From: a virus
Lineage: Duplodnaviria; Heunggongvirae; Uroviricota; Caudoviricetes
Virus record (IMG/VR): IMGVR_UViG_2671180809_000008
DNA length: 6,173 nucleotides
Direction: 5' to 3' (one strand)
Shown here: one piece after another, positions 3,738-4,953 of the stretch
Layout of the letters: each line of letters begins with the position of its first letter
Numbering within the stretch: the first letter of the stretch is position 1
Position numbers and translations under genes: made by a program
The notes under the pieces: generated by a model
What the model was told of the DNA's origin: nothing
Seen by the model: the letters and a program-made list of their open reading frames with translations, nothing else
Databases searched by the model: none

Positions 3738-3774
3738 AACCGTAGCACGTCTTAAGCAAGAACGTGCTGCGGTT
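3738..3774. repeat. Imperfect palindrome element, copy b (AACCGTAGCACGT - 11-nt loop - ACGTGCTGCGGTT)
   Basis: 13-bp stem with one G-T pair, immediately 3' of the methyltransferase stop. The arms are shared with the element at 4917-4953 and with the half-element at 2744-2755. Confidence 0.5.
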
Positions 3775-3779
3775 GGATG

Positions 3780-4448
3780 CTATTTTTTCCCTGAAGCGGA
3801 AAACATTACTACAGTACCTTGAACCCTGGTTTTAACATTCTCGAAATGCTCTGAGAGTATATGTGTTAAGCCTTCTTCGGAATCTTTTGTGTTTGAAAAG
3901 ATGCCTTTCTGATTGTAAATGCGCATCAGTTTTTGACCGAAGCTATTGTGCACAACTCCATCGCCAAGAATTGTGGCTCCGTATAGAGTTCCATCGTCAG
4001 TTAAGGCCTGCGCCGCATTGCGTATTACACAGCTTTTTGTAGATATATTTCCAGGCAGGCAGTGAAGAAGGTAAAACATGGAAATGGAATCAAATTGACC
4101 ATGTAACGCCGCGGGATAAGGTTCAAAAACATCATGGCTAATTTTATGTTTAATTTTTGATTCCCCAGCCCTTGTAGATGCCGCGTTCAGGCTAGCTTCG
4201 TTCAAATCCATTAAAGATATCAGACTACTCTCAGGTACGTGAGTAAGGTAAAACCCAGTTCCAACACCAATATCCAGATGGTTGTTACCTAAATGTTCCA
4301 GAAAGTGTGGAAGAAGGTGTTCCTTTGTAGGACATCCCCATGCAAGCCGATTTGATACTCCCAAAACCCACCAGTCATAAAGCTTTAGGGTAAGTGGTGT
4401 GTAAATTTTAGCCCCATCATCTGTGTTTGTTTTCATTGATTTCACCAT
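3780..4448 (-). CDS. Class I (Rossmann-fold) SAM-dependent methyltransferase, substrate unknown
   Basis: 222-aa ORF with motif I LDIGVGTG followed by an acidic residue at the end of the next strand (SLMDLNE) and a motif II-like FDSISMFYLLHCLP. AT-rich and co-oriented with ipaH. An alternative start at M5 (4436) has GGTGA 7 nt upstream. Confidence 0.8.
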   Translation of the reverse strand: MVKSMKTNTDDGAKIYTPLTLKLYDWWVLGVSNRLAWGCPTKEHLLPHFLEHLGNNHLDIGVGTGFYLTHVPESSLISLMDLNEASLNAASTRAGESKIKHKISHDVFEPYPAALHGQFDSISMFYLLHCLPGNISTKSCVIRNAAQALTDDGTLYGATILGDGVVHNSFGQKLMRIYNQKGIFSNTKDSEEGLTHILSEHFENVKTRVQGTVVMFSASGKK

Positions 4449-4467
4449 GTTATAGTTTTATTTGTGA

Positions 4468-4496
4468 ATTAAATCAATTATGGCGATGAATTACAA
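4468..4496 (-). promoter_or_regulatory. Putative sigma70 promoter for the methyltransferase
   Basis: On the - strand TTGTAA (4496-4491), a 17-nt spacer and TTTAAT (4473-4468), about 20 nt upstream of the ATG at 4448. Pattern match only. Confidence 0.3.
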
Positions 4497-4504
4497 GGGG
4501 TTAA

Positions 4505-4903
4505 ATGCTGCCGCAGCATAGCGATATTGAAATAGCCTGGTATGCTTCGATACAGCAGGAGCCGAATGGCTGGAAGACCGTCACCACACAGTTCTACATC
4601 CAGGAATTCAGTGAGCATATTGCGCCACTTCAGGATGCTGTAGNNNNNNNNNNNNNNNNNNNNNNNNNNNNNNNNNNNNNNNNNNNNNNNNNNNNTGGCT
4701 GGAAGACCGTCACCACACAGTTCTACATCCAGGAATTTAGTGAGTATATTGCGCCACTGCAGGATGCTGTAGATCTGGAAATCGCAACGGAGGAAGAAAG
4801 ATCGTTGCTGGAGGCATGGAATAAATATCGGGTATTGTTGAATCGTGTTGATACATCAACTGCACCTGATATTGAGTGGCCTGCAAATCCTGTCAGGGAG
4901 TAA
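4505..4903 (+). CDS. Tail fibre assembly protein C-terminal domain fragment, interrupted by an N gap
   Basis: ATG at 4505 with AAGGGG 5 nt upstream. The C-terminus ...[39 protein letters not shown] aligns with the Tfa C-terminus at 323-850 (...[30 protein letters not shown]). The N-terminal part is unlike full-length Tfa, and the length is uncertain because of the gap. Confidence 0.6.
4567..4772 (+). repeat. Two 77-bp near-identical direct repeats flanking the N-run
   Basis: 4567-4643 and 4696-4772 differ at three positions (c/t, c/t, t/g). The copy-to-copy period is 129 bp, which is 43 codons, so the frame is preserved. Confidence 0.85.
4644..4695. other. Run of 52 N (assembly gap or masked sequence)
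   Basis: Directly visible in the sequence. Confidence 0.95.
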
Positions 4904-4916
4904 TCATTGGGATTAT

Positions 4917-4953
4917 GCCGCAGACACGTCGTATGCAGGAACGTGCTGCGGTT
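4917..4953. repeat. Imperfect palindrome element, copy c (GCCGCAGACACGT - 11-nt loop - ACGTGCTGCGGTT)
   Basis: About 11-bp stem with a 1-nt bulge, starting 14 nt after the tfa-fragment stop. Same arms as copy b but a different loop. Confidence 0.5.

Follow-up and report, generated by a model that had tools for sequence, protein, structure and literature searches.

The 6,173-nt stretch of DNA analyzed here (IMG/VR virus record IMGVR_UViG_2671180809_000008, Caudoviricetes; referred to below as the window) carries an imperfect palindrome in two complete copies, A and B, and one partial copy, all of them at the boundaries of gene modules (Table 1). Judged by its sequence and its neighbors, this palindrome is a conserved stem-loop of lambdoid phages and prophages, positioned where tail-fiber genes meet accessory cargo genes. 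The explanation that best accounts for the whole, and that we hold with moderate confidence, is a terminator-type boundary stem-loop that would also provide short homology for the exchange of cassettes.

According to this explanation, the hairpin would mark the border between the tail end of the rightward late operon (tfa, or pin with its invertible segment) and leftward accessory genes ("b region," moron, or cargo genes). Being GC-rich, the RNA hairpin would be stable on either strand and could terminate transcription, block 3′ exonucleases, or both. The main beneficiary would be the minus-strand cargo gene that ends just right of the hairpin, which in the window is a methyltransferase gene. 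Copy A may also serve CssrB, a small RNA (sRNA) encoded on the plus strand, and would then be a bidirectional terminator between convergent transcripts. Unrelated cargo cassettes would in this way reuse the same hairpin as their 3′ end.

A Stem-Loop Family of Lambdoid Phages and Prophages

An earlier note on this DNA, made from the sequence alone, had described repeated arms with differing loops, one copy behind the stop codon of the methyltransferase gene and the other behind that of a tfa fragment. The repeated arms are real, as established by direct reading, repeat search, shuffling and folding. Copies A and B make up a 29-nt direct repeat (D6) with 90% identity, and the 11-mer arm, with one mismatch allowed, has four matches in the window versus 0.06 expected, a number that none of 200 shuffled sequences reached. 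Copy A has an 11-bp stem and an 11-nt loop, with one U.G pair on the plus strand that is an A.C mismatch on the minus strand; copy B has a 12-bp stem with one bulged A. The hairpins alone fold at -19.9 (A, plus strand), -15.2 (A, minus), -17.3 (B, plus) and -16.8 kcal/mol (B, minus), and z-scores that include the flanks are -3.6 for A on the plus strand and -3.7 for B on the minus strand. Covariance model R1 scores copy A at 43.4 bits and copy B at 57.5 bits. The placement was also right: copy A lies 7 nt past the methyltransferase stop (minus strand) and copy B 13 nt past the stop of the tfa fragment (plus strand). The loops do differ, but they are not unrelated, since 8 of 11 positions are identical; it follows that the entire element is homologous and not its arms alone.

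Stem conservation was assessed in a covariance-model alignment of 36 distinct sequences, which mis-scores columns 5/6 for variants that have no bulge. Paired cells amount to 93.5%, three of the 11 pairs are changed on both sides, and between 0 and 3 of 500 column shuffles reach the observed values; pairing drops to 14–54% in slid controls. At stem position 4 there is a series of C:G, U.G and U:A pairs, to which phage lambda adds a C:G to A:U double change, carried by the stem of its first copy. By this comparative evidence, the stem is maintained as a structure. Five distinct wobble variants have the U.G on the plus strand and one has it on the minus strand, numbers too small to speak of strand asymmetry.

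The earlier note had proposed searching whole genomes for the arms. Of 5426 complete E. coli genomes, 5193 (96%) contain matches to a 41-nt copy A query, at 12,088 places in total, and the copies that were inspected all lie at the ends of lambdoid prophages. With one to nine copies per genome (median 2), all in such prophage ends, the suggestion of a REP-like small repeat family had to be given up. The copy B query matched 113 of 50,697 phage records, all of them lambdoid, among them lambda, HK629/630, mEp460, HK106, Stx phages, one Salmonella phage and one Citrobacter phage. No dedicated feature is annotated at the hairpin in the phage records listed, of which a few have a "hypothetical protein" call overlapping it. 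A RefSeq "hypothetical protein" of 45 aa, WP_001309429.1, crosses the hairpin and overlaps the 3′ end of the methyltransferase gene in two loci (L003, 4959-5096; L005, 3144-3281) and is probably spurious. A pattern scan of contigs was permissive and produced mostly chance matches in GC-rich actinobacterial contigs and contigs of metagenome-assembled genomes, the usable ones being from S. flexneri and E. coli (L021, L026, L035, and L051); the range of the family outside Escherichia and Shigella is not derivable from that scan.

Lambda itself (J02459) has two copies. The first (22573-22606; GCCGCAGAAACGTT-GTATGAAAT-AACGTTCTGCGG) is located 15 nt past the stop of tfa (orf-194), and the second (24162-24195) is identical to window copy B at 34 of 34 positions. 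In E. coli K-12, the DLP12 prophage has a copy with one mutated arm between tfaD and ybcY (582112-582144), Rac has one near its right end (1434731-1434764), and Qin a decayed one. Chance similarity of two unrelated palindromes, for which only the short length would speak, thus has virtually no probability left: it is refuted by the arm matches in the window, the more than 12,000 places in E. coli, and the identity with lambda. Our literature search found no description of the lambda copies, of the hairpin family, or of a lambda terminator after tfa. Luk and Szybalski are said to have reported, in 1983, "tandem termination sites in the late rightward operon"; the hairpin after tfa may be one of their t′J sites.

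Flanking Genes and Cassette Joints

The surroundings of the hairpin were surveyed in a census of 186 instances, oriented by their loops, from loci fetched by pattern and by Tfa homology. The listing is a lower bound, and flank figures given in this and the following section refer to the instances listed in it. These at least 186 instances have about 20 left-flank and 12 right-flank classes in at least 31 combinations, and some loops are chimeric, e.g., with the left half of one type and the right half of another. Right neighbors are almost always minus-strand genes that end 7–120 nt from the hairpin and encode methyltransferases, DinI-family proteins, LEM-3-like GIY-YIG proteins, lambda Ea47, or DUF2971 proteins; in phages with a minimal b region, the integrase gene is found 285 nt to the right. 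Left neighbors are of two kinds. One is the last gene of the tail region on the plus strand, either tfa or a Pin-type invertase gene that ends 2–41 nt away. The other is the promoter side of minus-strand cargo: two ipaH paralogues, EcoRII, an OLD-type ATP-dependent nuclease, or a GGDEF protein. The link to ipaH that the earlier note raised therefore exists, in that two different ipaH paralogues abut the hairpin, but it is not specific, because restriction, nuclease, GGDEF, DinI and methyltransferase genes abut it too.

In more than 3800 genomes, homology to the methyltransferase module starts at window position 3737/3740, where the hairpin has its left edge; it continues leftward into CssrB and ipaH in nine genomes only (enteroinvasive E. 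coli, EIEC, and similar). In strain S88, hairpin and methyltransferase gene come directly after a tfa fragment, twice within 10 kb, and in CFSAN018748 they come after an ATP-dependent nuclease gene. The ea47 gene of lambda is bracketed by the two direct hairpin copies (22573-24195; 1574-3196 in locus L004). When lambda is compared with the IMG/VR prophage locus L259, tfa and hairpin 1 align and homology resumes at hairpin 2, the prophage being otherwise collinear and having a single hairpin; this makes ea47 a 1589-bp indel bounded by two direct hairpin copies. The methyltransferase unit, with a spacing of 1049 nt, is bounded by repeats of at least 118 nt that consist of a tfa fragment plus hairpin, and it occurs with two different right flanks. 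As a pattern, then, the proposal of recombination joints at the cassette edges is supported by the shuffled flanks and by the breakpoints that thousands of genomes have at the edge of the hairpin, and a dedicated recombinase is not indicated.

The presence of the same ~34 bp beside unrelated cargo would offer shared homology at which lambdoid prophages recombine. Cassettes would be gained and lost exactly there, and units of tfa fragment, hairpin and cargo would pile up, which could explain the two and a half copies at module boundaries in the window. Flank shuffling, chimeric loops and hairpin-bounded indels all point to exchange at the hairpin, and this exchange would be homologous rather than site-specific recombination.

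We consider it very unlikely that the palindrome is instead a dedicated recombination site, at which a specific recombinase or nuclease would recognize the duplex or an extruded hairpin and move cargo in the manner of attC sites or transposon ends. Such a site would agree with the precision of the joints at the left edge of the hairpin and the hairpin-bounded indels, with the bulged base in the left arm of many copies, and with the Pin-type invertase genes that end next to the hairpin in three flank classes. However, there is no recombinase gene that regularly accompanies the palindrome: most copies have no pin or a truncated one, and the pin of the window is a 68-aa stump. Read by eye, the core sites of attC (RYYYAAC...GTTRRRY) are absent. 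Crossovers also took place within the loop and on the right side of the hairpin, as predicted for homology-driven exchange, and the repeats around the methyltransferase cassette extend at least 118 nt into tfa. It is the lack of a linked gene and of attC cores, together with the crossovers inside and beside the hairpin, that makes a dedicated recombinase improbable.

Two known kinds of site were tried as candidates and rejected. For an attC site, copy A is followed by GTTGGAT with no upstream ATCCAAC, copy B is followed by GTTAGTT, and there is no integrase among the open reading frames (ORFs) of the window. A Hin/Pin crossover site was rejected for want of a recombinase consistently linked to the hairpin.

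Another alternative is that the hairpin is a passive hitch-hiker, i.e., a functionless 3′ untranslated tail of tfa that was repeated by sloppy recombination between prophages duplicating the 3′ ends of tfa. Two of the three window copies do follow a tfa 3′ fragment inside a 118-nt repeat, the methyltransferase cassette comes with tfa fragments in each of the 26 loci that have the 1049-nt spacing (among the loci listed), and a tfa stop lies to the left in 104 of the 186 instances. The remaining 82, on the other hand, have about 16 unrelated left flanks that are not tfa, and the arms stay intact and show compensatory changes while flanks and loop vary. At this position, other lambda-type tfa genes have stable stems that differ from the hairpin (L287, L289, L292, and L319). 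These stems came from a search for lambda Tfa relatives that was used for contig ends and alternative stems and returned relatives of 94–100% only, which are too close for deep covariation. Finally, an expressed sRNA has copy A as its 3′ helix, as detailed below, and a hitch-hiking tail appears unlikely.

The Hairpin as a Probable RNA 3′ End

Copy A coincides with a known RNA feature. The terminal helix of the CssrB model (approximately model positions 150–180) aligns to window positions 3741-3771, so that copy A is, on this alignment, already cataloged as the 3′-terminal stem-loop of CssrB. In S. flexneri 301, CssrB was found between SF2021 and SF2022 on the strand opposite to both; a band of ~180 nt was detected in northern blots, and the 3′ end was set by prediction of a rho-independent terminator (Peng, Yang & Jin 2011, PMC3071730). 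The size of ~180 nt agrees with a 3′ end at copy A. As CssrB on the plus strand has its predicted 3′ end at copy A and the methyltransferase gene on the minus strand stops 7 nt from it, the hairpin stands between convergent transcription units. No promoter-like site adjoining copy A or B appeared in a scan of the window.

The sequences that follow the stem differ between strands. On the plus strand they read UUGGAUGCUA (copy A) and UUAGUUUGUG (copy B), and here the earlier observation that neither copy has a clean U-tract holds. On the minus strand of copy A, the stem is followed by UUUCCUUUACGAUUU. The 10-nt minus-strand tails contain six U in copy A (UUUCCUUUAC) and two in copy B (CAUAAUCCCA). 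A terminator scan of the window recorded, for copy B, only the inner sub-stem at 4934-4950. The same contrast is seen in the census, in which minus-strand tails have a mean of 6.4 U per 10 nt in non-tfa contexts (n = 82) versus 2.0 after lambda-type tfa stops (n = 104). Left flanks other than lambda-type tfa (classes L0, L7, L13, and L16) are A-rich and frequently end in AGTTGAAA(A), and class L1, a variant tfa end with an A-rich spacer, gives the minus-strand U-tract UUUUUCUUUU.

The suggestion of atypical terminators made in the earlier note is therefore supported: copy A is the terminal stem-loop of CssrB and the northern size fits, and minus-strand genes have the hairpins at their 3′ ends, followed by U-rich tails if the left flank is other than tfa. 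Taken together, four lines of evidence argue that the hairpin is probably a terminator-type RNA 3′-end structure: the regularities in its position, the dependence of the U-tracts on the strand, the presence of other stems at this site, and the match to CssrB.

Several points weigh against this view. The census is conditional on a pattern that requires conserved arms, and E. coli prophages dominate it. The power of the covariation test is low, given that the arms hardly vary. Throughout the census, the plus-strand tails make poor U-tracts, their mean being 4.2 U per 10 nt. The two operons that converge in lambda are both antiterminated (by N and Q), so classical termination would be inefficient there and a stabilizing role may matter more. 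As to the available part of the Term-seq tables of K-12, no RNA 3′ end with the hairpin sequence is found in them (Adams et al. 2021, PMC7815308), although genes of cryptic prophages may be silent. The same tables, as far as seen, contain a Rho-dependent (bicyclomycin-sensitive) 3′ end at NC_000913.3 position 582001 on the minus strand, antisense to tfaD (PMC7815308). This end is located ~110 nt beyond the DLP12 copy, which has no minus-strand U-tract, and suggests that this mutated, tfa-flanked copy may be read through.

These points bear on a further alternative, in which the hairpin acts solely as a REP-like mRNA stabilizer: it would not terminate transcription but would keep 3′–5′ exonucleases away from the cistron upstream of it on long antiterminated transcripts (leftward from pL and late rightward). 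The copies of lambda are placed either between cistrons or where N- or Q-antiterminated operons end; intrinsic terminators are ignored there (in part established knowledge), and many tails have no U-tract behind stems that are stable at -15 to -20 kcal/mol. Against it, the minus-strand U-tracts in cargo contexts, such as that of class L1, look like those of bona fide intrinsic terminators, and copy number and sequence are unlike those of the REP family. We regard stabilization as the only function as rather unlikely, although by the sequence data considered here it looks the same as the terminator reading.

The Window and Its Relation to Known Systems

The features discussed are collected in Table 1.

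Table 1. Hairpin copies and adjoining features in the window.
Feature	Position	Strand	Description
Hairpin copy A	3738-3774		aCCGTAGCACGT / loop CTTAAGCAAGA / ACGTGCTGCGGtt; direct reading
Hairpin copy B	4917-4953		gCCGCAGaCACGT / loop CGTATGCAGGA / ACGTGCTGCGGtt; direct reading
Right flank of copy B	4954-4990	+	Class R1, TTAGTTTGTGAGCTTTCGATAGTG...; conserved, resembles flank of lambda copies, gives weak U-rich plus-strand tail
Left arm only	2744-2755		gCCGCAGCACGT; end of third repeat unit of tfa 3′ end plus hairpin; "n" at 2756 directly after
Second tfa 3′-end fragment	2633-2743	+	Joined to truncated pin; precedes partial hairpin
ipaH, N-terminal leucine-rich repeat part only	2757-3464	-	Abuts "n" joint
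CssrB sRNA (Rfam RF02799)	3592-3771	+	230.2 bits versus gathering score 76; model 1-180 of 180; divergent from ipaH
Class I SAM-dependent methyltransferase cargo gene, relative of ybcY (K-12)	3780-4448	-	Methyltransf_12/23/25
Lambda-type tfa C-terminal fragment before copy B	4505-4903	+	Caudo_TAP, 2.7e-25; interrupted by N run

The third hairpin copy consists of a left arm alone, and the earlier note had it cut by the "n" and the ipaH joint. The arm is there; the cut is best read as an assembly artifact. A 118-nt repeat (D1; 2633-2750 and 4806-4923, 90% identity) comprises the 3′ end of lambda-type tfa, the spacer and the beginning of the left arm, and the joint is located where the repeat copies begin to diverge, in the loop. 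When a 401-nt query over the "n" was searched in complete E. coli genomes, it split at 2755/2757, and none of 4767 matching records covered 80% or more of it. E. coli NCTC86 (L005) matches the window at 1581-2755, 3740-4643 and 4696-5251, i.e., it corresponds to the window minus 2756-3739 (984 nt with the ipaH part and CssrB), with the left arm as an 11-nt overlap. In complete S. flexneri and EIEC genomes, ipaH extends beyond window position 2757; the other side of the joint is presumably the start of the constant C-terminal part of ipaH that all paralogues have in common. The lone left arm thus looks most simply like a contig end at a joint and not like a biologically truncated copy.

A second assembly joint lies within the tfa fragment that precedes copy B. 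A gap of 52 N (4644-4695) is flanked by a 77-nt duplicate (D2, 96% identity, spanning 4567-4772) that is single-copy in the loci L001 and L005, and gap and duplicate are an unmerged contig overlap. The ORF at 4505-4903 reads through the gap and is thereby artificially lengthened. The spacing from A to B is 1178 nt here versus 1049 nt in 26 other loci, among the loci listed, and the surplus of 129 nt equals 77 + 52, so that it is the gap with its duplicate that inflates the distance. Assemblies break at the tfa/hairpin repeat elsewhere as well, since 13 of 80 IMG/VR contigs with lambda-type tfa end 0 nt past its stop codon.

Other observations concern the genes around the hairpins. In three loci (L026, L035, and L051; S. 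flexneri SFBU1023 and E. coli ECMA0423, complete genomes), ipaH has an insertion of ~1.33 kb near window position ~2852-2860; the flanking matches overlap by 9 nt, and the insertion looks like an insertion sequence element with target duplication. The Rfam candidate RNA "IS009" maps to the 3′ part of the coding sequence of lambda-type tfa (window 4700-4860 and 2608-2687; 4857-5055 in the K-12 locus L246), and because matches with full score lie inside tfaD, tfaR and lambda tfa, it probably reflects protein-coding conservation and not an RNA gene. Farther to the left, two convergent tfa genes (287-850, plus strand; 879-1412, minus strand) have 5′ parts that form a 159-nt inverted repeat (71%), with a canonical bidirectional terminator between them at 856-875. 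They are followed by a reversed tail-fiber fragment with an in-frame stop near 1562 and by the 68-aa pin invertase stump (2380-2586). In combination, the tfa pair, the reversed fragment and the stump resemble an invertible host-range switch of the Pin type that has decayed. Right of the hairpins, a stretch at 5923-6121 (minus strand) contains Rfam matches to C4 antisense RNA (75.9 bits) and isrK (72.2 bits) as well as a c4-a1b1 target site, just upstream of a gene for a Rha-family regulator (5315-5887, minus strand; Phage_pRha, 3.5e-27). The C4 and Rha genes make up a P1/P7-type antisense-RNA immunity module of a second prophage segment.

The slot behind lambdoid tail-fiber genes is of practical interest, as it carries ipaH in Shigella and EIEC, other type III effectors in enterohemorrhagic E. 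coli (EHEC), and anti-phage genes in many E. coli strains. A 34-bp landmark, present even in lambda, would let annotators delimit these cargo units, and it is the real origin of the CssrB "terminator." The hairpin repeat also explains the breaks of draft assemblies at the cargo slot. In addition, the old "linker sequence" model of phage mosaicism finds in it a concrete substrate that can be tested.

Among known systems, CssrB (RF02799) is the closest to hand: the full model matches at 230 bits, with copy A as its last helix, in the same setting between ipaH and a methyltransferase gene and on the opposite strand. Whereas Rfam and the original report (PMC3071730) treat this helix as the terminator of the sRNA itself, here it belongs to a phage-wide family older than the ipaH/CssrB cassette, and the same hairpin with its right flank is found without CssrB in more than 3800 E. 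coli genomes. REP and BIME elements resemble the hairpin as imperfect palindromes after stop codons with a possible mRNA-stabilizing role. They differ in occurring in hundreds of copies per genome, versus a median of two and a maximum of nine for the hairpin, which is confined to lambdoid prophage ends and whose sequence is unlike the REP consensus.

Bidirectional intrinsic terminators and moron terminators, a concept reportedly put forward for lambdoid phages by Juhala et al. in 2000, share with the hairpin a GC-rich stem between convergent units, flanked by an A-tract and, on its other side, by a weak T-tract, 3′ of autonomously expressed accessory genes. In the hairpin, by contrast, the plus strand has a poor U-tract, and the minus strand has none if tfa is the left neighbor. 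Ordinary terminators are also gene-specific, whereas the lambdoid hairpin sequence is reused across many unrelated cassettes.

The PeSL (promoter-early stem-loop) elements of T4-type phages (Arbiol et al. 2010, PMC2839356) are likewise short, conserved, terminator-type stem-loops repeated in hyperplastic accessory regions. There, insertions, deletions and replacements are bounded by the element, and recombination between copies shuffles single-gene modules, which is comparable to the ea47 indel, the 984-nt difference of NCTC86 and the 31 or more flank combinations described here. By analogy, it is possible, and for now a tentative idea, that the hairpin is a lambdoid terminator doubling as a cassette linker, with single-gene units excised between neighboring copies, perhaps as circles, and entering other hairpin-bearing lambdoid phages. 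Candidates for such units, put forward with the same reserve, would be ea47, ybcY-type methyltransferase genes, ipaH with CssrB, EcoRII, OLD-type nuclease genes and DinI. If true, this would amount to a simple sequence rule for the transfer of virulence effectors and anti-phage genes behind tail-fiber genes, and to a search key for cargo. The systems are not the same: the hairpin belongs to temperate lambdoid phages, its sequence is unrelated, and there are far fewer copies per genome; a conserved promoter half, mini-circles and terminator activity are PeSL features, whereas the hairpin family is known here from sequence. Seen beside these systems, the feature is real and explained in outline, and it belongs to ordinary phage biology, with a mechanism that is not of a new kind.

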